IMG/VR virus record: IMGVR_UViG_3300037067_024288
Direction: 5' to 3' (one strand)
DNA from: an uncultured virus (IMG/VR IMGVR_UViG_3300037067_024288)
Taxonomy: Duplodnaviria > Heunggongvirae > Uroviricota > Caudoviricetes
Length of the DNA: 20,000 bases
The notes under the pieces: generated by a model
Databases searched by the model: none
Seen by the model: the letters and a program-made list of their open reading frames with translations, nothing else
Told to the model about the DNA's origin: nothing
Translations under genes and position numbers: made by a program
In this document: positions 1 through 9,695 of the stretch, piece by piece
Position numbering within the stretch: the stretch's first letter is position 1
Layout of the letters: each line of letters starts with the position of its first letter

Positions 1-518
1 TAATTGATATTCCTTATCGTCCAAATATGGTACTTATAGGATGGTTTCAGCGGCATGAGAGATTTGATTTTATCCGGGAAAAGCTTATCAAAGATGTTTT
101 CAAAATACCGGATAAACCAATGCCTGAAACAATAGGCATTCAAGTTCGTAGGGGTGATTTTTTGCAGGATCCCGTAAACTTCCCGACACAACCCGACCAA
201 TACTACCTAAATGCCTTAAATGAAATAGGTTATAAAGGAAAAAGAATAGTATTTTGTTCTGATGATATACCTTACTGTCGGAAACATTTCGGACATTTAC
301 CTAATGTATCATTTAGAACCGGATTCACCCCAGTACAAGATATAGAGTTTATGGCTAATTGTGAATCGCTTATTATTTCTAATAGTACTATGGGATTCTG
401 GGGAGGATACCTATCACTCAGGGAACGCCTTATTATTTATCCGCATAATTGGTTTGCAAAAAACTCAGGGAGGTTCGGAAATGAGATCTGTATGATATTA
501 GAATGGAGGGAAAGATGA
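1..518 (+). CDS. GT11 alpha-1,2-fucosyltransferase-like glycosyltransferase, 5'-truncated by the window edge
   Basis: Frame is open from base 3 (IDIPYRPNMVLIGWFQ, parallel to EIPYSPNLCIKGFWQ in the 964 paralog). GT11 motifs IGIQVRRGDF, VFCSDD and CESLIISNSTMGFWGGYL. Confidence 0.85.
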   Translation, partial: IDIPYRPNMVLIGWFQRHERFDFIREKLIKDVFKIPDKPMPETIGIQVRRGDFLQDPVNFPTQPDQYYLNALNEIGYKGKRIVFCSDDIPYCRKHFGHLPNVSFRTGFTPVQDIEFMANCESLIISNSTMGFWGGYLSLRERLIIYPHNWFAKNSGRFGNEICMILEWRER

Positions 519-967
519 TGGATTTTCAAACACCAAAACAAGTTTGCAATTATATGGCTTTACTATTACCAGATAATGCAGGAGATATACTTGAACCGAC
601 AAAAGGTTCAGGTAATCTAGTAGAAGCCTTGAAAAATAAAGGCAATGTTATTGCCCCAGATGATTTTTTTACAATGTTTAAAAGACAATTTGATTGGATC
701 GTAATGAACCCTCCATTTAGTCCAATGGCGCAAGGATACAAAATTCTTTATGAATGTATGGAAATGAGTAATAATATCATTGCATTAATGCCTTGGTTAA
801 CATTAATTAATGGACAAAAAAGAACATCCGATATAATGAATTTCGGTTTAAAAAGCATAACTCATTTACCTCGAAGTATATTCAATGGGGCAAGAGTTCA
901 GACATGTATATTAGAGATGCATAAAGGTTATACTGGTGATACTCTTTTTCAAACTTATAATATATGA
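515..967 (+). CDS. Small amino (N6-adenine-type) DNA methyltransferase, orphan
   Basis: FQTP, SAM motif I ILEPTKGSGNL, catalytic motif IV VMNPPF. ATG at 515 overlaps the upstream stop (ATGA); the ORF track starts it at 503. Confidence 0.75.
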   Translation: MMDFQTPKQVCNYMALLLPDNAGDILEPTKGSGNLVEALKNKGNVIAPDDFFTMFKRQFDWIVMNPPFSPMAQGYKILYECMEMSNNIIALMPWLTLINGQKRTSDIMNFGLKSITHLPRSIFNGARVQTCILEMHKGYTGDTLFQTYNI

Positions 968-1716
968 TAACGTGTGAAGAAAAAGGTCGGTTCGGGAATT
1001 ATCTATTTCAGATTGCAGCTACAATGGGCTTGGCTGAAAAATATGGTGATACTGCCGAATTTGATGATTATGTAAATAGCCAAGAATTCAAAAATCATTA
1101 TACTGCCGGGGTTGATGTAAGTTGGTTTCCCGATTTTGAACTTCCAAAAAGATCACACGAAATTGAGAATGTTTACGAAGAAATCGGGCATGGATACCAA
1201 GAAATACCGTATTCACCTAACCTTTGTATTAAAGGATTTTGGCAGTCAGAAAAGTACTTTTCCCATATTCGGGAAAAACTACAAACTACATTTCGGATCC
1301 CAAACGAGACTATTTCCGGCACCATCGCGATTCATTATCGCAGAGGAGACTTTTATCTTTACCCAGACTTATTTCCTATATTACCTTCAAGTTATTTTAT
1401 TCAAGCTTTAGGAATGCATTATGATTTTAATGAACATCAAAGAGTTATTGTGTTTTCAGATGAGATAGAAAGTTGCAAAAAAATATTTTCGAAGTATAAC
1501 TTTGAATATTCTGAAAATAAGAATCCCATTCAAGATTTTTACGCTATGTGCCGATGTGAGAACTTCATAATAAGTAATTCGGCCTTTTCTTGGATGGCTG
1601 CCTGGTTATCTCGATCTCAGAAAAAAATTGTAATTTGCCCAGAAGAAAGTAAATGGTATGGTAAAAGCGGGATGGACACAAAAGATTTATTGCCTGATGA
1701 ATGGATAAAAATTTAA
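964..1716 (+). CDS. GT11 alpha-1,2-fucosyltransferase-like glycosyltransferase
   Basis: GRFGNYLFQIA, GFWQSEKYF, IAIHYRRGDF, VFSDE and CENFIISNSAFSWMAAWL, the classic GT11 motif series. Confidence 0.9.
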   Translation: MITCEEKGRFGNYLFQIAATMGLAEKYGDTAEFDDYVNSQEFKNHYTAGVDVSWFPDFELPKRSHEIENVYEEIGHGYQEIPYSPNLCIKGFWQSEKYFSHIREKLQTTFRIPNETISGTIAIHYRRGDFYLYPDLFPILPSSYFIQALGMHYDFNEHQRVIVFSDEIESCKKIFSKYNFEYSENKNPIQDFYAMCRCENFIISNSAFSWMAAWLSRSQKKIVICPEESKWYGKSGMDTKDLLPDEWIKI

Positions 1717-1718
1717 AA

Positions 1719-1931
1719 ATGAGAGATTTATCGCAAATTTTAATTGACTGTAAAGTAGGATTATTAAAAATTGAAGATGCAAAACAGGAAATACACAAAT
1801 TGTTTAAAAATCTCTTTGTTTTTAAATCGGGATACGAAATAGGTCATAGAAAAGGAGAAGCGGGAAGACTATTTAACGAAAAAACTATAAAAATTGATTT
1901 TGATAACTGGATTAACACCTTAGAAAAATGA
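1719..1931 (+). CDS. Small hypothetical phage protein
   Basis: ORF fills the gap between GT11 and the methyltransferase. Its stop overlaps the next ATG (ATGA). Start could be 1701 or 1719. Confidence 0.6.
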   Translation: MRDLSQILIDCKVGLLKIEDAKQEIHKLFKNLFVFKSGYEIGHRKGEAGRLFNEKTIKIDFDNWINTLEK

Positions 1932-2611
1932 CTGAAGAACAAATTCACCAAAACGAATATCGTAAAGTTGAAGACCACGTAAAAGAGGTCATTCGCAGTA
2001 CAAACATTAATTACAGCCCTTACTACCATGTATTGCCTGAATTAATTAATCAACGAGGATATGAATATGGTATCGAATTGGGCGTGTTTACGTTTGGGCA
2101 TAGTCAGTCTATTCTTGATAAAACTAATATTAAATTAGTGATCGGAATTGATCCATATAAAGAATATCCATCAGATGCTATAAATATGGGTACAATCGTC
2201 AGCCAAACTGAATTTGACATACTTTATAGGTTGGTTAAAGAAGAATCGGCAAAATATAGCAATAGGTTTGAATTGTTTCGCATGTCAAGTGATGAAGGAT
2301 TTAAATATATTACTGAAACCGATAAATACATTGATGAATTGTATTTTACATTGATGAACAAAACTCTTGAATCAAAAGATAAATTTGATTTTTTTTTCGC
2401 GGATGGGTTACATACTGCCGATCAATTACAAAGAGATTTATATAATTATAGTCAATTAATCAACAAAGGCGGTATATGCGCTGGCCATGATATTGATCAC
2501 GGAACATTTCCGTTTTTAACTCCAGTAATTGAAAATTTCGCAAAAGTACATTCTCAAAATGTTATAAGAGGACCCTTCCATTCATGGTATATTGAAAAAA
2601 ATTGGGACTAA
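1928..2611 (+). CDS. Class I SAM-dependent methyltransferase (Methyltransf_24-like, probably glycan O-methylation)
   Basis: GIELGVFTFGHS, IGIDPY, FDFFFADGLH, LINKGGICAGHD motifs. Confidence 0.85.
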   Translation: MTEEQIHQNEYRKVEDHVKEVIRSTNINYSPYYHVLPELINQRGYEYGIELGVFTFGHSQSILDKTNIKLVIGIDPYKEYPSDAINMGTIVSQTEFDILYRLVKEESAKYSNRFELFRMSSDEGFKYITETDKYIDELYFTLMNKTLESKDKFDFFFADGLHTADQLQRDLYNYSQLINKGGICAGHDIDHGTFPFLTPVIENFAKVHSQNVIRGPFHSWYIEKNWD

Positions 2612-2769
2612 TGGTAGAGCAAAAATTCCACTTCGTAAAAGGTTATTTTAATTACCGAATAGTCAGAAAATGCCCGAATAACCATTTTGAATTAGTATGC
2701 AAGATTCCTGTATTTTGTAGTGATGCAAAGGAATTTACTGAGAAAATAACTAACTTTTTAAATAATTAA
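2611..2769 (+). CDS. 52-aa hypothetical protein (not in ORF track)
   Basis: ATG overlaps the upstream stop (TAATG). Translates as MVEQKFHFVKGYFNYRIVRKCPNNHFELVCKIPVFCSDAKEFTEKITNFLNN and ends 5 nt before the next ATG. Confidence 0.55.
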   Translation: MVEQKFHFVKGYFNYRIVRKCPNNHFELVCKIPVFCSDAKEFTEKITNFLNN

Positions 2770-2774
2770 AAGCT

Positions 2775-2984
2775 ATGTGGCCATTCACAAAAAATGTAAA
2801 GATGGGTTTTAAAATAGAGAATCACCCGCAAGACAGAAAATGTATATTAATTTCAATAAAAGGAACCGGGTTGAATATGAATAATCCTGTACATTTGGAA
2901 TGTGTAGAGGTCATAATTAAGGATAATATTCAGGAAATGTTTTGTGTCGGACATAACTTGCCTTCTCCACAGAAAAATATTTAA
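2775..2984 (+). CDS. Hypothetical protein (MWPF N-terminus)
   Basis: 69-aa ORF packed in the operon. Confidence 0.55.
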   Translation: MWPFTKNVKMGFKIENHPQDRKCILISIKGTGLNMNNPVHLECVEVIIKDNIQEMFCVGHNLPSPQKNI

Positions 2985-3000
2985 TTAAAACTATAAAGCC

Positions 3001-4665
3001 ATGATGTTAGATTTTAAAGTATTAGTAAAAAAATACGACCTGAAAATTTCGGGTATTTTACAAATCGGTAGCCATTTTTGGCAAGAACGCGATGTATTAT
3101 TGGATTTAGGAGTAAAGAAATTTGTACTTGTAGAGCCACAGAAACACGCTTTTAAGATTACTGAAGAAAGAAGTAAGGGTTTGGATGTCCAATTATTTAA
3201 TTGCGCCCTGTCTGATAAAAAAGGTACTGCAAAGCTATTTACAAATACAAACAATGAAGGCCAAAGTTCTTCATTATTAAAACCGGCACTTCATTTACAA
3301 AAATATCCCGATGTTACTTTTGAAGGGGAAGAAACTGTTGAAGTAAAACTTTTAGATTTTCTGAAATTTGACAGATCAGCTATAAATACTATTTTGGTTG
3401 ATGTGCAGGGTGCTGAAGGAAAAGTTTTTGCCGGTGGTGAAAATACTTTGGATGATATTGATATAATATATTCAGAAATCAACTTTGTTGAAATGTATGA
3501 AGGATGTATTCTAGTAACTGAACTTGATAAATTACTTGGAAAATCTGGATTTGTAAGAGTAGAAACAGGACCAGAGAATGCAGGATGGTCCGATGCTTTA
3601 TATCTCAAAAAATCGATTCTCGAAAAACCAAAATCTATACCTATGAAAGCTCAAATACCTGAAACTATTTCTGCGGATTCGGAAGGAGAATATCTGAAAA
3701 AATATCCCGATGTTGCAATGGCTATAATGAGAGGCTCTTTTAAATCTGGCCGGGAACATTATGATCGTTATGGTCGTAGCGAAGGCCGGGAATGGGGTGG
3801 TGGAAAAATTATTTCGGTAAATCCCTCAAATACCATAGTTAAAGTTAATAAAATTGATGTGCCACTTAAATATCGTCCAAATCAGTCGATTGTATATCCG
3901 AATGGAAATAATACGCCCTTTGAAAAATGGTTTTATCAATGGCATTTGGAACACAATCCTAAAACTATCAGGACTTATTTACCTATCTACTGGACAGCCT
4001 TTTACGTGAATCACCAATATGGCCAGGATAAAAAAGCAATTGCTGAACTTCAGAAATATATTGATAAGCTCGATAAGTCAAAAAAATACTTTACCATAGT
4101 CCAATATGACGACAATATCCTAAACTCATTGGATGGACTTGATATAATTGTTTACGCTTCCGGCAATAATAAACCCGGATGTTATCCTATTCCCCTTCTC
4201 TCCGAAACCATGAAAGTAGAACCTATTGACTATTCTATTAAAGATATTTTTATGAGTTTTCGGGGTGTAAATACTCACCCGATACGTAAAAAAATGGTTG
4301 ATGAACTGAGTAAACATGCACCTATTTCATTTGATGTCGTTCCCTGGGATGAATATATTGACGAGCTTAAACACTCGATTTTTGCATTGTGTCCTCGCGG
4401 GTACGGGGTGACTTCCTTCCGGCTTTATGAAGCTATGCAATACGGGGCTATTCCCGTGTATATCTCTACAGGTGCAGACTTCTGGGACCCATTTAATTTA
4501 CCTCCTGAATTTTATGTGAAAATTCGCGAAGATGAAATTAATCTCATCCCTGATATACTTGGAAAAGTTAATCCTATTGATATGCGTAAAAAAGTAGAAG
4601 ATTACTTCGGAAAGTATTTTACTTTTGAAAAGTGTGCTGAGAATATAATTTTTACATTGTCTTAA
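3001..4665 (+). CDS. FkbM-family methyltransferase fused to an exostosin (GT47)-like glycosyltransferase
   Basis: N-terminal ILQIGSH, VEP, NCALSD, VDVQGAEGKV, IIYSEI, WSDALY (FkbM). Central YLKKYPDVA...HYDRYGRSEGR module. C-terminal FALCPRGYGVTSFRLYEAMQYGAIPVYIS (exostosin/GT47). Confidence 0.85.
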   Translation: MMLDFKVLVKKYDLKISGILQIGSHFWQERDVLLDLGVKKFVLVEPQKHAFKITEERSKGLDVQLFNCALSDKKGTAKLFTNTNNEGQSSSLLKPALHLQKYPDVTFEGEETVEVKLLDFLKFDRSAINTILVDVQGAEGKVFAGGENTLDDIDIIYSEINFVEMYEGCILVTELDKLLGKSGFVRVETGPENAGWSDALYLKKSILEKPKSIPMKAQIPETISADSEGEYLKKYPDVAMAIMRGSFKSGREHYDRYGRSEGREWGGGKIISVNPSNTIVKVNKIDVPLKYRPNQSIVYPNGNNTPFEKWFYQWHLEHNPKTIRTYLPIYWTAFYVNHQYGQDKKAIAELQKYIDKLDKSKKYFTIVQYDDNILNSLDGLDIIVYASGNNKPGCYPIPLLSETMKVEPIDYSIKDIFMSFRGVNTHPIRKKMVDELSKHAPISFDVVPWDEYIDELKHSIFALCPRGYGVTSFRLYEAMQYGAIPVYISTGADFWDPFNLPPEFYVKIREDEINLIPDILGKVNPIDMRKKVEDYFGKYFTFEKCAENIIFTLS

Positions 4666-4702
4666 TGTCTGAATCATATCATTATTAATTAAATAGTCTA
4701 AA

Positions 4703-5446
4703 ATGATTGAACACTGGAATATACCCGAAATATTAAGAGAACAATATTTGGGTTTCATTAGATTATGTTTAGTGGATGAAAATGAATTTGCATATTTCAA
4801 AAGGCATCCTGCTATTAAGGTTATTATTGAGAATACAGATGTTGAAAGCGGATATGAGTGTTTAGAAAAGGCAAACGCAATAATTATGCGTATTGACTAT
4901 CCTCGCCATTTCAATGAAATTGAATCTATTTCTGACCATGAGAAAATAGGAAATCCTGATATTTTTAATAATATTTTCGGCGTAACTATTAGCCCGACAA
5001 CCTCACGTTATTTAATGCATTTAAGTCAAATATACGAATGGTTTGATGATTTGAACGAGTTAGTTATTGGAGAAATTGGAGCTGGGTATGGTGGACTTTG
5101 TACAATCATTCATGAATATTTTGATCCAAAAGAGTATATTCTCTTTGACCTTCCTGAAGTAATGGATTTTCAGGTCAAATACATCAAAAAATTCAATCCT
5201 GACATTAATGTAAGTAGAAATGTTAAAAAAGACACTAAACTTGACTTGATATTAGCATTTTGTTCATGGTCCGAACTTGACTACGACTTAAAAATGGATT
5301 ATTTAGTAAATGTTATCAGTAAAGCCAAGAAAGGTGTATTAGCAATTAACTATGACTATGAATTGAATGTTGAACTCGTCAGAAATGTTTTACTTGACAA
5401 GAAAATTACTGAGCGTATTCCGGGATTTATAATAACATTTGAATAA
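4703..5446 (+). CDS. Putative sugar O-methyltransferase
   Basis: IGNP, SPTTSRY, EIGAGYGGLC, YILFDLPEV and DLILAFCSWSEL resemble the putative sugar O-methyltransferase family. Confidence 0.75.
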   Translation: MIEHWNIPEILREQYLGFIRLCLVDENEFAYFKRHPAIKVIIENTDVESGYECLEKANAIIMRIDYPRHFNEIESISDHEKIGNPDIFNNIFGVTISPTTSRYLMHLSQIYEWFDDLNELVIGEIGAGYGGLCTIIHEYFDPKEYILFDLPEVMDFQVKYIKKFNPDINVSRNVKKDTKLDLILAFCSWSELDYDLKMDYLVNVISKAKKGVLAINYDYELNVELVRNVLLDKKITERIPGFIITFE

Positions 5447-6198
5447 TGCGAAAAATATTTATTACATATTGCGATTACCCTTTGGGACATTTGCGAAGGG
5501 AAATCTATGAGAAATACACAAAGCCAAGATTTATAGCTTATTGTGATAAGCATGGTTTTGAATTTATTCCTATTATGGAAAATATCGCTACTCCGCGAAA
5601 TTTAGGCTTTGCAAAAGTATTTTGGATAAAACAGAATATGGCAAACTTGGCCGATGGTGATGTAATTACCTACATGGATATTGATTGTTGCATTATGGAT
5701 GGTAGGGTTTCGGCAATATTTGATGCAGATTTTTCTATTGTCAGGGAATCTACCGGATGTCTTTGCATGGGTGGTACATGGAGTGTAAAAATTTCAGATT
5801 GGAGTCGTAAGTTTATCGAAGAAATGTGTTCTGAAGAAAGACATCAAAAAAGTTGTCATTTAGGATCATGGAACGTCTGGCATGAAAATGATGCTGTTTA
5901 TCACGTTCTTGGCCTTAATTGGGGACAGGAAATGACTGAAATGGGAACCAGAGATACGACTCCTTTTACCAAAGAAGAAATATTTAAGCATGTTAAAATA
6001 TTGCCGGTAGAATGGGGAGTTACCTATAATCCAAATGATACAAATAACCCACCCAATTATTATAAAACAATCGCTCAATATTTTAGACCTGAAAATTATC
6101 GATCTATTGATGATACTATTGTACGGCATTTATCTGCCAGTTCTATGTTGGAAGATTGGGCAGAAGAAAAATATTTTAAAATACCTATGAAAATATGA
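5446..6198 (+). CDS. GT-A fold glycosyltransferase, GT34 (GMA12/MNN10)-like
   Basis: AYCDKHGFEF, FAKVFWI, DxD motif YMDIDCCI, WHENDA, late VRHL. Confidence 0.65.
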   Translation: MRKIFITYCDYPLGHLRREIYEKYTKPRFIAYCDKHGFEFIPIMENIATPRNLGFAKVFWIKQNMANLADGDVITYMDIDCCIMDGRVSAIFDADFSIVRESTGCLCMGGTWSVKISDWSRKFIEEMCSEERHQKSCHLGSWNVWHENDAVYHVLGLNWGQEMTEMGTRDTTPFTKEEIFKHVKILPVEWGVTYNPNDTNNPPNYYKTIAQYFRPENYRSIDDTIVRHLSASSMLEDWAEEKYFKIPMKI

Positions 6199-6905
6199 TG
6201 AATGATCCCCGTAGAATAAGTGTTGTTTGCCCTTATTTTAATAGGAGTGATAAGATTATGGATATGCTTGAGCCATTACTTCCAGATAACCGTATTGATC
6301 AGATCGTTCTTTGTGATGATAGAAGCCCAGACGATGATTTCTATAAATTAATTGACATCGTAAAAGACTTCAAAAAAGTAGTTGTTTACCGGAATGTTAT
6401 CAATTTATATATTCAACAAAACAAAAGAACGGCCATATCTTTTTCTAAAAATGATTTTTTGGCTGTTGTAGATAATGATAACCGCATGGATAAGGATTTC
6501 TTTGATAAGATTTTTGCTATTCCAGATTGGCAACCTAATATCCTTTATTCACCGGCCTTTGGGTTTCCAAATTTCAATTATTGTCATTTAAACGGACAAA
6601 CCATTACAAAACAAAATATCTCATCATATACAGGAGATAAATCAATAATAACATTTTGCAATTTAAATAATTATTTTGTCAATCGAAACCAATTCCTGAA
6701 CACTTATATTCATGATGATAATGTAAGGGGTGCGGATGGTCTCGCAACATATTTTAATTGGCTAAAAGCAGGTAATTCAATATATGTAGTCCCGGACCTT
6801 ACTTATCAGCATAGAATAAGTCCTGATTCAGTATTTCTTTCTGAGACTGATTCAAATATGCAGAAAGTTTATTTGTGGTTTGAGAAATTGAAAGAACTGA
6901 AATAG
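6195..6905 (+). CDS. GT2 family glycosyltransferase
   Basis: ISVVCPYFNR, IVLCDDRSPD, FLAVVDNDN, YQHR. Confidence 0.85.
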   Translation: MMNDPRRISVVCPYFNRSDKIMDMLEPLLPDNRIDQIVLCDDRSPDDDFYKLIDIVKDFKKVVVYRNVINLYIQQNKRTAISFSKNDFLAVVDNDNRMDKDFFDKIFAIPDWQPNILYSPAFGFPNFNYCHLNGQTITKQNISSYTGDKSIITFCNLNNYFVNRNQFLNTYIHDDNVRGADGLATYFNWLKAGNSIYVVPDLTYQHRISPDSVFLSETDSNMQKVYLWFEKLKELK

Positions 6906-6937
6906 TTACGAAATAGCTAATATTTTTGACTAAAAGT

Positions 6938-6989: not shown

Positions 6990-7166
6990 GTGAGAATCAA
7001 ACCTTTAAATAATAAATTAGCATTTTGGCTATTTGTAATACTTACTATCATTGATATTGGCATAGTAATTTTTCATCCATTGATGTTTATAGGAAAAATT
7101 TTTATTGGGGCAAGCTTAGCTCTCTCAGTTGTCAATATCCCTTTGTTGTGGAAATATAAATTCTAA
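6990..7166 (+). CDS. 58-aa two-transmembrane-helix protein (not in ORF track)
   Basis: GTG start. MRIKPLNNKLAFWLFVILTIIDIGIVIFHPLMFIGKIFIGASLALSVVNIPLLWKYKF has two hydrophobic stretches and ends 5 nt before the next ATG. Confidence 0.6.
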   Translation: MRIKPLNNKLAFWLFVILTIIDIGIVIFHPLMFIGKIFIGASLALSVVNIPLLWKYKF

Positions 7167-7171
7167 AAAAA

Positions 7172-7621
7172 ATGAAAACTTTATTAATTTCAATCCTGAT
7201 TTTTATTTCATTTGAAATATTCTCTCAAAGTTCATCATCTATAATAATTAGCCCTGAAGATGTCGGTATTGGTCCATTGGGTTCTTATAAATTTGGTAAA
7301 TCAATTGTGTCAGCCGGGGTATCCTACGGAAATTATTATAATACTTCATTCTTACGCGATCATTGGAAAACATATACTTCCTATGGTTATTTTTTTGGGG
7401 ATCATTCATACCTTTTAGTTGATATTCATTATAACCAGTTTAACATTATTAGGGAAGTTCCATCTTGGTTTAATGAAAAAGCACTAACCAAATGGACTTA
7501 TTCAATAGGAGGGGGGATCATTCTTGATCAATTTCATTCTACACTTCAAGTTGATCTTATACAGCATATTGGAACGGTCAGTTTTGGCTATTATTTTGGC
7601 AGGGATTTAATTTATAAATAA
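7172..7621 (+). CDS. Secreted outer-membrane beta-barrel-like protein
   Basis: Signal peptide MKTLLISILIFISFEIFS followed by Q. Gly/aromatic alternating strands (AGVSYG, SYGYFF, YSIGGGI) and a C-terminal VSFGYYF strand. Confidence 0.65.
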   Translation: MKTLLISILIFISFEIFSQSSSSIIISPEDVGIGPLGSYKFGKSIVSAGVSYGNYYNTSFLRDHWKTYTSYGYFFGDHSYLLVDIHYNQFNIIREVPSWFNEKALTKWTYSIGGGIILDQFHSTLQVDLIQHIGTVSFGYYFGRDLIYK

Positions 7622-7710
7622 CCGTGCATAAAACAGTTGTAGATTATGATTAAGAATGTATGTAAAAACGGGAAAAGCGAGTTGCATTTGTTAATTAATA
7701 TTAATGAAAA

Positions 7711-7842
7711 ATGAGTCTGCAACATCCATTAGTAGGAATAGCATTAACCTTACTTGTATTAGTAATTATAGGCTTTACAGAGCATAGAAAGGCTAAGAAA
7801 CAAGCAAAAAAAATGAATGATGGTAAATCAAAGAATAACTGA
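7711..7842 (+). CDS. 43-aa single-pass membrane protein (not in ORF track)
   Basis: MSLQHPLVGIALTLLVLVIIGFTEHRKAKKQAKKMNDGKSKNN: one hydrophobic helix plus a basic tail. Confidence 0.5.
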   Translation: MSLQHPLVGIALTLLVLVIIGFTEHRKAKKQAKKMNDGKSKNN

Positions 7843-8191
7843 TCTCAGGAAAGTTATTAATATCCCAAATCATTTTAATCCAGGCATATTAGGGATACTT
7901 ATTTATGAACCATATATGCGAAAACAATATTATATGGATTCATTGAAATACTTTACCAATATTGAGATTAAGCAAGCAATTGTTTTTACCGATAATCCTA
8001 CAATAGCTAAAAAATATCTGTGTTACTCAATAATTGAATCTAATAATACAATTGATGAGTTTTTAAAGATTTGCATGTGTGAACATCTGATTATTGATAA
8101 GTCTCAATATGCTTATTTAGCAGCTATTCTCAATCCAAATAAAGATAAAATTATTGTCCATCCGGGCGATATTGATTTAATAATCACTTAA
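7817..8191 (+). CDS. Degenerate/truncated GT11-like protein (C-terminal half only)
   Basis: IVFTDNP, DEFLKICMCEHLIIDKSQYAYLAAILN and KDKIIVHP align by eye with the C-halves of the two GT11 genes. The HxRRGD motif is absent. Confidence 0.6.
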   Translation: MMVNQRITDLRKVINIPNHFNPGILGILIYEPYMRKQYYMDSLKYFTNIEIKQAIVFTDNPTIAKKYLCYSIIESNNTIDEFLKICMCEHLIIDKSQYAYLAAILNPNKDKIIVHPGDIDLIIT

Positions 8192-8201
8192 ATTTTTAAT
8201 T

Positions 8202-8468
8202 ATGACAAAAGCAGAATTAGTAGCTAGTATAGCTGCAAAAACAGGAAAAACAAAGATTGAAGCAGAACAATTTATTGAAGCATTTCAATCTGTAGTAAAA
8301 GAAAACATCAGTGCCGGGATTACCATTCGTGGTTTTGGTACATTTTTACTTAAAGATCGTGCCGCTAAACCTGCGAGAAATATCAAGACAGGAGAAACTA
8401 TTCAAATTCCAGCTCATAAGGCTCCTCTGTTAAAATTCGCAAAGGAATTCAAAGAAGAAGTTCGATAA
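8202..8468 (+). CDS. hup: HU family DNA-binding protein
   Basis: MTKAELVASIA, IRGFGTF, RAAKPARNIKTGETIQIPA: canonical HU/IHF signature, 88 aa. Confidence 0.95.
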   Translation: MTKAELVASIAAKTGKTKIEAEQFIEAFQSVVKENISAGITIRGFGTFLLKDRAAKPARNIKTGETIQIPAHKAPLLKFAKEFKEEVR

Positions 8469-8501
8469 GTCGCGCCCTGTATTGGGTGTGTGGATTGAAA
8501 C
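8469..8501 (+). CRISPR. Solitary type I-C-like CRISPR repeat (SRU), not an array
   Basis: GTCGCGCCCTGTATTGGGTGTGTGGATTGAAAC (33 nt). GTCGC start, stem CGCGCCC/GGGTGTG with two G:U pairs, TGGATTGAAAC end as in I-C repeats. Only one copy found; no cas genes in the window. Confidence 0.8.
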
Positions 8502-8542
8502 GATAATAAGTAGGTAGATTGTTGTTGATTTTCCTTTTGTGA

Positions 8543-8572
8543 GGACCGGGGATTTACTTCCCGGTCTTTTTT
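8543..8572 (+). terminator. Rho-independent terminator after HU and the repeat
   Basis: GGACCGGGGA-TTTAC-TTCCCGGTCT stem-loop followed by a T run. Confidence 0.85.
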
Positions 8573-8745
8573 ATTGCATAGGAAATTTCATATTCAATTA
8601 TTTAGTTGAATCGATTGAATGCAAAAAATTTGTAGTTCATCGTTCTATAAATCATACAATTACAAATTAATAAAAATATCAGAAATTGATCAGAAAAAGA
8701 ACTATCTTTGAATCCTAATTGGTTATCAATCCAAACTACAACACC

Positions 8746-8795
8746 AAAAAGAAAAAGCCCCAAGACTTGTTTCTGCAAACAATCTGGGGCTTTTC
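8746..8795 (-). terminator. Rho-independent, probably bidirectional, terminator of the minus-strand operon
   Basis: AAAAGCCCC-a-AGA-c-TTGTTT-ctgc-AAACAA-TCT-GGGGCTTTT hairpin, followed on the minus strand by TTTTTCTTTTT, about 20 nt past the stop at 8814. Confidence 0.8.
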
Positions 8796-8813
8796 GATTT
8801 AAACCTGTTAATA

Positions 8814-9695
8814 TTAATGATTATCGGGATTCTGGGCGTAGCTCTCTTTAATATCATTAATCCCTTCTTTTGATTCCTGTTTGATCCCAAATAATTCATC
8901 TACTGATATCTCTGAATCCGCTATCTGATTTATGAGACTGATCATTTCAATAATATCAAATTTATTGAATAGAAAAATGTCCTTTTTGAAGTATTCAGAA
9001 ATTTTCGTGTCTGAAATGCCATAGGATGCAAAAACTTGAATCAACTCATCTCGCTTAGAAATTAATTTTTCTGTTGTGCTTATGTCCCCAGTTAAAATAT
9101 CCGATGCCGTTTTAAGAAGGGTATCGATTAAAGAGGCTGGAACAATAGAAAGAATGGCTTTTCGCGTAGCTTTAGCAGTGGCAAAATTTCCAGCTTCAAT
9201 AATCATTTGATCAAAACTTTTAGTCTTATCTGCATTGTAAATTGCCTGTACACCTTCCGATTTTATGATAAGCATTGACTCTAAATCTATGATTACGCAA
9301 TCAGATGTTATAAATTGTCTCCTTTGTTCTCTCACCCGACTTTCTATCCTGAGATTATGATATGACTGTGAAATTAATTTTGCCAGGTAAATAGTAGGGA
9401 TCATTACCTTTTCATTACCTGGATCATTTATGATATAAAAACATTTTGAAGCCGTATTAATATCAATACCCGCTAGGCAATTATCAGTTACAACCTGTAA
9501 ATTTCTGGGGTATTTCCGGGCCACGTCAACCGATGTCATCATTTGTAAACTTGCCTCTTGCTCTGGAATTAGTTTAGGAGGTAAACTTTTTACACTCTTT
9601 TTTATAGAGTCCCGTGTAAATTTCTTCATGTCTTGCATATCAATCGTATTTAGAAGGTTCATTTCAACACTCAACAAAACCATACTATTTACCAA
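8814..9695 (-). CDS. Conserved phage protein, candidate single-strand annealing/recombination partner of YqaJ
   Basis: VARKYPRN...ASKCFY...PTIYLAKLISQSYHNLRIESRV...ATAKATRKAILSIVP resembles, from recall, an uncharacterised family found next to YqaJ genes. Function is inferred. Confidence 0.45.
   Translation of the reverse strand: MVNSMVLLSVEMNLLNTIDMQDMKKFTRDSIKKSVKSLPPKLIPEQEASLQMMTSVDVARKYPRNLQVVTDNCLAGIDINTASKCFYIINDPGNEKVMIPTIYLAKLISQSYHNLRIESRVREQRRQFITSDCVIIDLESMLIIKSEGVQAIYNADKTKSFDQMIIEAGNFATAKATRKAILSIVPASLIDTLLKTASDILTGDISTTEKLISKRDELIQVFASYGISDTKISEYFKKDIFLFNKFDIIEMISLINQIADSEISVDELFGIKQESKEGINDIKESYAQNPDNH

Follow-up and report, generated by a model that had tools for sequence, protein, structure and literature searches.

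A complete type I-C CRISPR repeat behind a phage HU gene, flanked by a PAM and a short duplication, and its possible capture at a former protospacer

A genuine, full-length and well-preserved solitary type I-C CRISPR repeat occupies positions 8469–8501 (+ strand) of the window, the 20,000-nt stretch of phage-like DNA analyzed here, in the same orientation as the HU gene that it follows. New here is the architecture of its junction: the 5-nt sequence GATAA stands on both sides of the repeat, a duplication whose left copy comes after the type I-C PAM, TTC. We tentatively favor, at somewhat less than an even chance, a reading in which the repeat came in by capture at a former protospacer and would now yield a Cas5c-processable, crRNA-like RNA, either a competitor of host crRNAs or possibly a guide against un-inserted sibling phages.

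The 33-mer begins with the base directly after the HU stop codon TAA (8466–8468). Its GC content of 55% sets it apart as an island in surrounding DNA of ~30–33% GC (~31% for the whole window). At up to three mismatches it has one copy in the window, and 0 of 200 shuffles matched; the 150 nt on either side contain no degenerate copy of the repeat (alignment scores of 5 and 8). An array has at least two repeats separated by spacers, and the window has a single one. None of the 37 ORFs in the window belongs to a Cas family according to Pfam and PHROG profiles. The element is therefore described here as a lone repeat: it is intergenic and lies in phage-like DNA, with neither cas genes nor partial repeats nearby.

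Because the Rfam CRISPR-DR models are too narrow for the 33-mer (15.8 bits against a cut-off of 45), we built our own covariance model, trained only on 11 genuine 32-nt repeats from real I-C arrays. In the training repeats, every one of the 77 stem cells is paired, and all four Watson–Crick types occur at one covarying pair. The model recognizes the 33-mer over its full length with 41.3 bits (E ~1e-9) as the unique match in 20 kb, the next best match reaching 9 bits. Real arrays on which the model had not been trained score 39.3–55.5 bits and decayed terminal repeats 25–34 bits, so the 33-mer is as good as a working repeat. Its ends (GTCGC at the 5′ side, GTGGATTGAAAC at the 3′ side) agree exactly with the columns that are invariant among 22 repeats of real arrays.

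On the + strand, the 33-mer RNA is predicted to fold into a 2-nt overhang, a 7-bp stem (8471–8477 paired with 8484–8490), a 6-nt loop (8478–8483) and an 11-nt tail, with a folding energy of −11.8 kcal/mol (z −3.1). Two of the stem pairs are wobbles, G8472:U8489 and G8474:U8487. The hairpin is strand-specific, since folding of the opposite strand is poor (−4.6 kcal/mol, z −1.2). The nearest array repeats are those of Paenibacillus sp. y28 and of an uncultured Prevotella; two transitions and one extra loop base set the 33-mer apart from them, and both transitions retain pairing, as G:U. The G:U at the second stem pair is also found in 1 of the 11 real array repeats, and the other G:U corresponds to the stem pair that covaries in the arrays (GC in five, AU in four, CG and UA in one each). 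Published work on Cas5c describes recognition of a 7-bp stem, a U-G-G after the cut and an 11-nt tail (PMC8524198); set against that description, the fold of the 33-mer retains all of these features. The loop, 6 nt here instead of 5, is reported in the same source to be non-critical for BhaCas5c. The predicted Cas5c cut falls at 8490|8491 and would leave an 11-nt 5′ handle (8491–8501). The initial annotation, made from the letters of this DNA, had described a lone repeat abutting the HU stop codon, GC-rich in AT-rich surroundings, with I-C ends, a 7-bp stem whose two mismatches become G:U on this strand, no second repeat or cas gene in the window, and a processed 5′ end at 8491. This description was borne out throughout, and the 5′ end agrees with the Cas5c cut geometry of PMC8524198 as a predicted site.

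The same annotation expected the repeat to be matched by I-C arrays of Bacteroidota, which holds in part. Closely related 32-nt array repeats occur in 10 different assemblies of a collection scanned at one genome per species, and three of these are Bacteroidales; a 33-nt repeat of the window form is absent from that collection. In an uncultured Bacteroidales locus (L122), Cas3, Cas5c, Cas8c/Csd1 and Cas7/Csd2 (NCBIfam) lie directly upstream of the array and in the same orientation, and this order and orientation fix both the subtype, I-C, and the transcribed strand of the repeat family. Cas8c was found in 45 of 401 sampled Bacteroidota genomes; we took 44 Bacteroidota I-C loci, 32 of which have arrays, and in 29 of these 32 arrays the repeat belongs to the same family as the 33-mer. 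Two side observations concern such loci. At L122 (2518–8494), the array starts 11 nt after the cas7c stop codon, and transcription of the cas operon appears to run on into it; no ORF of at least 180 aa lies between cas7c and the array, so there is no cas1 at that place. In an uncultured Prevotella (L126, 1467–1562), two degenerate I-C repeats of 25–32 bits in the covariance model lie ~900 nt past the end of the array, possibly a regulatory mini-array resembling CreR/CreA.

The gene that the repeat follows (8202–8468, +) encodes an 88-aa HU/IHF-family DNA-binding protein, identified by Pfam PF00216 (Bac_DNA_binding, 2e-25), phrog_379 and HU/IHF chains in the PDB (down to 8e-17). It is the last of four small same-strand genes. 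The three ORFs upstream of it (6990–7166, 7172–7621 and 7817–8191, all +) match no Pfam or PHROG family beyond weak matches, and the products of 7172–7621 and 7817–8191 have no sequence match in the PDB. In the gap upstream of the four-gene block, a Bacteroidota-style −7 motif, TAnnTTTG (6921–6928, +), identified by motif match only, is a possible start of the transcript carrying the repeat. A further short ORF of <50 aa with a hydrophobic stretch was read by eye at 7711 to ~7860, overlapping the start of the 7817–8191 ORF in another frame.

Downstream, the repeat lies in the HU 3′UTR, 39 nt ahead of a strong intrinsic terminator (8541–8575, +) composed of a 12-bp stem, a 5-nt loop and a T-run; the window has three terminator-like sites, against 0.4 expected from shuffles. 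The + block ends at HU and the − block ends at 8814, which places the element in a convergent intergenic region. Between repeat and terminator is a spacer-like segment (8502–8540, +) of AT-rich, native-looking 3′UTR that opens with the right GATAA copy and whose first 34 nt are 8502–8535. In Bacteroidota I-C arrays, spacer lengths have a mode of 34 and are mostly 33–36, and the distance from handle to terminator hairpin here, 39 nt, comes close to that range. With the terminator 39 nt after the repeat, the unit is therefore laid out like a single crRNA, with the handle first, then a stretch as long as a spacer and then a hairpin at the 3′ end. From position and strand we infer that the repeat would be transcribed together with HU and that the transcript would end at the terminator.

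The simplest functional account of such a unit is the one given by the initial annotation, an RNA anti-CRISPR (Racr) decoy. The repeat would be a sponge for Cas5c and Cas7 riding on abundant HU mRNA, TTC and GATAA would be coincidental, and the downstream segment would be uninformative. The annotation's premise, that phage solitary repeats can mimic crRNAs, has direct precedent: viral solitary repeat units are established RNA anti-CRISPRs, and one of them, RacrIC1, is a gene-linked solitary I-C repeat that lies 11 nt behind an acrIC5 homologue, shares one transcript with it and inhibits I-C interference (PMC10651486). The same source reports that RacrIF1 sequesters Cas proteins in a dose-dependent manner, and it makes sense for a decoy of this kind to ride on a well-expressed mRNA; non-targeting crRNA is likewise reported to reduce interference. 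What stood of the proposal is the genuine sense-strand repeat with its Cas5c features intact. It had missed the terminator as well as the PAM and duplication, which point beyond a plain decoy.

To place the element in a wider setting, we compared it with a set of at least 73 solitary I-C-like viral repeats from IMG/VR. Among the matches listed, 37 of 73 lie no more than 80 nt behind the end of a same-strand ORF, as a decoy carried on an mRNA would. After four duplicate contigs had been dropped from these 37, 33 upstream ORFs were scanned: 28 have no Pfam family and, among the matches listed, 0 of the 33 encode HU. The linkage of a solitary I-C repeat to HU is thus unusual within this listed set, in keeping with the initial annotation, which could recall no HU-linked example. 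Against a plain decoy, and equally against the reading favored here, no recognizable acr gene neighbors the repeat (Pfam and PHROG, and PDB for the two larger upstream ORFs), and its best blastn score is 34.2 bits against 56 array repeats, below the SRUFinder criterion of at least 41.1, which applies to a published database of 17,823 repeats. As a separate observation, three repeats among the matches listed (L011, L071 and L081) are followed 39–51 nt downstream by a 12-bp terminator and resemble stand-alone small-RNA units, L071 with a sigma-70-like −35 box upstream.

The junction itself is the feature that a plain decoy leaves unexplained. Its order is TTC (8461–8463, +), the left GATAA copy (8464–8468, +), which includes the HU stop TAA, the repeat, the right GATAA copy (8502–8506, +) at the start of the spacer-like segment, and the remaining native 3′UTR. 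TTC is the type I-C PAM (PMC8406640) and comes directly before the left copy, and removing the repeat together with one GATAA would put TTC directly against the segment from 8502 onward. When a 33-nt slot is slid along the window, 55 of its 19,890 positions are flanked by a duplication of at least 5 nt, and 2 of the 19,890 also have TTC in front of it; these statistics were computed after the signature had been noticed and concern 5 nt in AT-rich DNA.

Recurrence of the signature in other viruses provides a second view of the same arrangement. Of the other distinct viral solitary I-C repeats among the matches listed, 71 in number, two have TTC, k nt, the repeat and the same k nt in this order; the arrangement is absent from the remaining 69 and from four solitary repeats in bacterial genome loci. 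One of the two (L080, 1481–1560) has a 7-nt duplication with TTC before the left copy, and its repeat lies between a gene end and a terminator; the other (L041, minus strand, ~1501–1532) has a 3-nt duplication, again with TTC before the left copy, on a contig unrelated to L080. Permuting the flanks of the 71 listed repeats gave a mean of 0.055 signatures, with two or more in 4 of 5,000 permutations. Three loci among the listed viral repeats have a duplication of at least 3 nt, and TTC precedes it in two of the three. This recurrence, like the junction in the window, is unaccounted for by a plain decoy, which we regard as a possible but rather unlikely explanation. The lengths of the duplications vary (3, 5 and 7 nt), which argues against a transposase with a fixed stagger. 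An origin by recombination between two spacers was considered and rejected, because only 30 nt separate 8468, where a neighboring protospacer would end, from the nearest TTC upstream (8436–8438), a length below that of nearly all spacers. Searches for un-inserted relatives of the window phage, L080 and L041 in IMG/VR found none, those with L080 and L041 returning their own loci only. A narrow literature search turned up no description of a PAM plus duplication around solitary repeats.

The reading we favor ties the junction to the layout of the unit, and we infer its chain of events from the capture event through transcription, processing and Cascade loading to an effect on immunity. A complete I-C repeat would have been captured into the HU 3′UTR at a former PAM–protospacer junction, possibly when a protospacer end left by a nick was joined to the repeat exactly at its 5′ boundary, a step that fits the variable duplication length. 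The insert would part the PAM from the old target, and the phage would thereby escape the host spacer; the HU protein is unchanged because the join falls after TAA. The repeat would then be transcribed with HU in a transcript ending at the terminator 39 nt downstream. Cleavage at 8490|8491 would release a crRNA-like RNA with an 11-nt 5′ handle, a spacer-length stretch of phage sequence and a terminator-derived 3′ hairpin, in which the resident 3′UTR would serve as the 'spacer' of a phage-encoded RNA. Such an RNA may load Cas5c, Cas7 and Cas8c and compete with host crRNAs in a Racr-like manner. It would be unable to target its own genome, because AAC stands where the PAM would be, and it could target sibling phages that have no insert.

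A bolder version of the capture, which we consider doubtful, would make the element a protein-free, self-propagating guide cassette, joined at a nick a few nucleotides inside a targeted protospacer and homing into siblings. The joining might involve, for example, the host Cas1–Cas2 integrase acting on a 3′ end made by Cas3, followed by recombination via the matching spacer. Joining of this kind would account for the PAM, for duplications of variable length (3, 5 and 7 nt in three phages) and for the precise boundary of the repeat. The carrier would be immune to that spacer, and its resident sequence would become a crRNA against siblings lacking the insert. During mixed infection, the siblings could be cut by host Cascade–Cas3, and the repeat would pass to them as the carrier serves as template for repair.

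If the segment were a guide, a target might be expected outside the locus. The evidence of guide type is internal to the phage: its own junction, with the PAM, 5 nt, the repeat, the same 5 nt and the segment. A search of IMG/VR with every sixth base left free returned 0 targets, named phages gave matches at chance level only, the window has no second site for the segment, and 401 Bacteroidota genomes contain 0 copies at up to three mismatches. Across 60 type I-C loci (869,798 bases), a set that does not include the host's own locus, the longest TTC-flanked seed match of the segment is 8 nt, and 160 of 200 shuffled segments reach a seed of 8 nt or more in the same loci. The failure to find a target in IMG/VR, the named phages, the 60 I-C loci and the 401 genomes sits well with a plain decoy. 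It also bears on a further reading, in which the RNA would be a Cracr-type mimic of host CreR/CreA RNA and would steer Cascade through a short PAM-proximal match to repress a cas or creT promoter. The layout in the window does match that of the published viral CracrVA1, and I-C Cracrs are reported (preprint 10.1101/2024.10.29.618823). However, the 8-nt seed is equaled or bettered by most shuffles in loci other than the host's own, and the published Cracrs are from Pseudomonadota, Bacillota and Actinomycetota. We consider a mimic of this type very improbable.

Whether the repeat has any present function is a separate matter, and the capture could have left an inert scar: a repeat that recombination or failed targeting brought in recently from a host array, perhaps an escape at the time and functionless now. 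The junction signature would explain the origin of such a scar without requiring function, and the comparison of copies is compatible with it. An identical locus is present in a 6-kb metagenome contig (L133), and a contig from a run of another study (X2) covers 7287–8875 with 0 differences. The other copies of the locus (L133, X2) are all 100% identical, so that they document presence in more than one sample and supply no evolutionary comparison; the element is seen in one lineage only. Three further runs (X3–X5) hold only short, partly diverged pieces, with X5 having no coverage of 8471–8539. No contig from runs X2–X5 joins across the repeat, and contigs cannot show absence. Nor did spacers provide a link to a host, since 273 and 850 unique I-C spacers compared with the window gave no match longer than 15 exact nt; the lack of both a segment target and a spacer-linked host in these searches also suits a scar. 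The repeat itself speaks against one. No base is missing at either end, its score exceeds that of decayed terminal repeats, its 55% GC persists in DNA of 31% GC, and both stem changes keep pairing on the transcribed strand only. Moreover, any transcript with the repeat would be a Cas5c substrate in an I-C host. We therefore regard an inert scar as unlikely.

Run X2 also contains material that does not belong to the identical phage. An HU variant (P0002) is encoded at a loose end, at 8295, of a diverged relative, and in one contig 8359 is joined to 8941 with low similarity. These diverged pieces stand beside the identical phage, and related phages therefore co-occur in that sample.

A last alternative places the function of the repeat in DNA. 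It might be a homology patch for recombination or integration at host arrays, or a decoy for Cas1–Cas2, perhaps aided by an IHF/HU-like protein. The nearest viral look-alike repeat among the matches listed (L013, 1501–1532, minus strand; L088, 301–332) stands immediately upstream of an ORF that by eye resembles a phage integrase N-terminus, and may mark an attachment or recombination site. Integration into arrays is mentioned as an earlier proposal in PMC10651486, and IHF is part of I-E and I-F integration complexes according to PDB titles and a literature abstract. The window, however, has no integrase among its 37 ORFs, the wobble pairs and the strand dependence of the fold suggest that selection acts on the RNA, and the literature covered holds no link between IHF and I-C adaptation. 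A DNA-level site is the reading to which we give the least credence.

The phage-like character of the window is evident from a RecE-like exonuclease, a sigma factor, a DnaD-like loader, an HNH endonuclease, a DUF5131 protein and a block of glycosyl- and methyltransferases. This block, a long same-strand stretch at 27–6905 with glycosyltransferases (GT11, GT2 and GT47-like) and methyltransferases, stops shortly before the HU operon and may serve DNA or cell-surface modification. No named phage resembles 7800–9700, and the 33-mer is matched in named phages by two weak partial records only. The protein encoded at 8814–9695 and the RecE-like exonuclease led to no close relatives in IMG/VR. The nearest non-self relatives of HU are 65–67% identical (P0002 and P0003, on metagenome contigs), and its cellular relatives, Flavobacteriaceae IHF-beta among them, are ~50% identical. 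A repeat behind the HU stop is absent at 15 HU loci of no more than 50% identity, which are too distant to bear on conservation; one of the HU loci (L145) has a stray 8-mer on the other strand ~160 nt away. Shine–Dalgarno cores precede 2 of the 37 ORFs in the window, and this scarcity, together with the Flavobacteriaceae relatives of HU, fits a Bacteroidota host.

Solitary phage repeats are known as RNA anti-CRISPRs, while the route by which they are acquired and the role of the adjoining sequence are largely open. If lone repeats land at PAM–protospacer junctions, each would be the record of a specific CRISPR attack that failed or was escaped. The favored reading, if true, suggests a route by which host machinery hands repeats to phages, predicts single-repeat guides aimed at sibling phages, and makes the distinction between Racr decoys, regulatory mimics of the Cracr kind and mini-array guides less sharp. 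A simple sequence rule, with PAM, k nt, repeat and again the same k nt, would also follow from it and could be tested on the viral solitary repeats already published, ~2,000 in number. Should the signature be due to chance, the element is simply another I-C Racr candidate from an under-sampled phage group.

Among known systems, the Racrs are the first to compare with the element. Like RacrIC1, it is a solitary I-C repeat in a phage, a few nucleotides behind a gene and without cas genes or a second repeat, and engagement of Cas5c is expected in both; co-transcription is demonstrated for RacrIC1 and deduced from position here. RacrIC1 follows an AcrIC5 homologue and has a Bifidobacterium host, whereas the window has HU and a Bacteroidota-like phage. 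The activity of RacrIC1 has been demonstrated, and the window element is known from sequence alone. A PAM and duplication at the junction are seen for the window element and are not mentioned for RacrIC1 in the available part of PMC10651486. The SRUFinder catalogue (PMC10651486, Supplementary Data 1) likewise consists of intergenic lone repeats in viral contigs, many of them I-C. It contains the nearest of the listed viral look-alikes (L013 type) and gave 0 matches for the first 13 nt of the window element. With a sequence absent from this catalogue and an unusual linkage to HU, the element adds a new member to a class already known.

Two other systems share the layout of the unit. Cracrs combine one repeat-like element, a spacer-like segment and a terminator of the rho-independent type; a short PAM-proximal match steers Cas proteins to the host's own cas or creT promoter (10.1101/2024.10.29.618823). 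The window has the same succession of repeat, spacer-like segment and terminator but, unlike a Cracr, no match to a cas or creT promoter was found for it in the 60 I-C loci. The spacer part of a Cracr is a copy of a host regulator, whereas the segment in the window looks like the phage's own former target. Virus-borne mini-arrays (PMC11656645) borrow the host effector and carry a guide against related viruses, and the predicted product of the window would similarly match un-inserted siblings. Mini-arrays, however, place at least two repeats around an acquired spacer, while the window has one repeat, with resident phage DNA in the position of the 'spacer' and the terminator in that of the 3′ hairpin.
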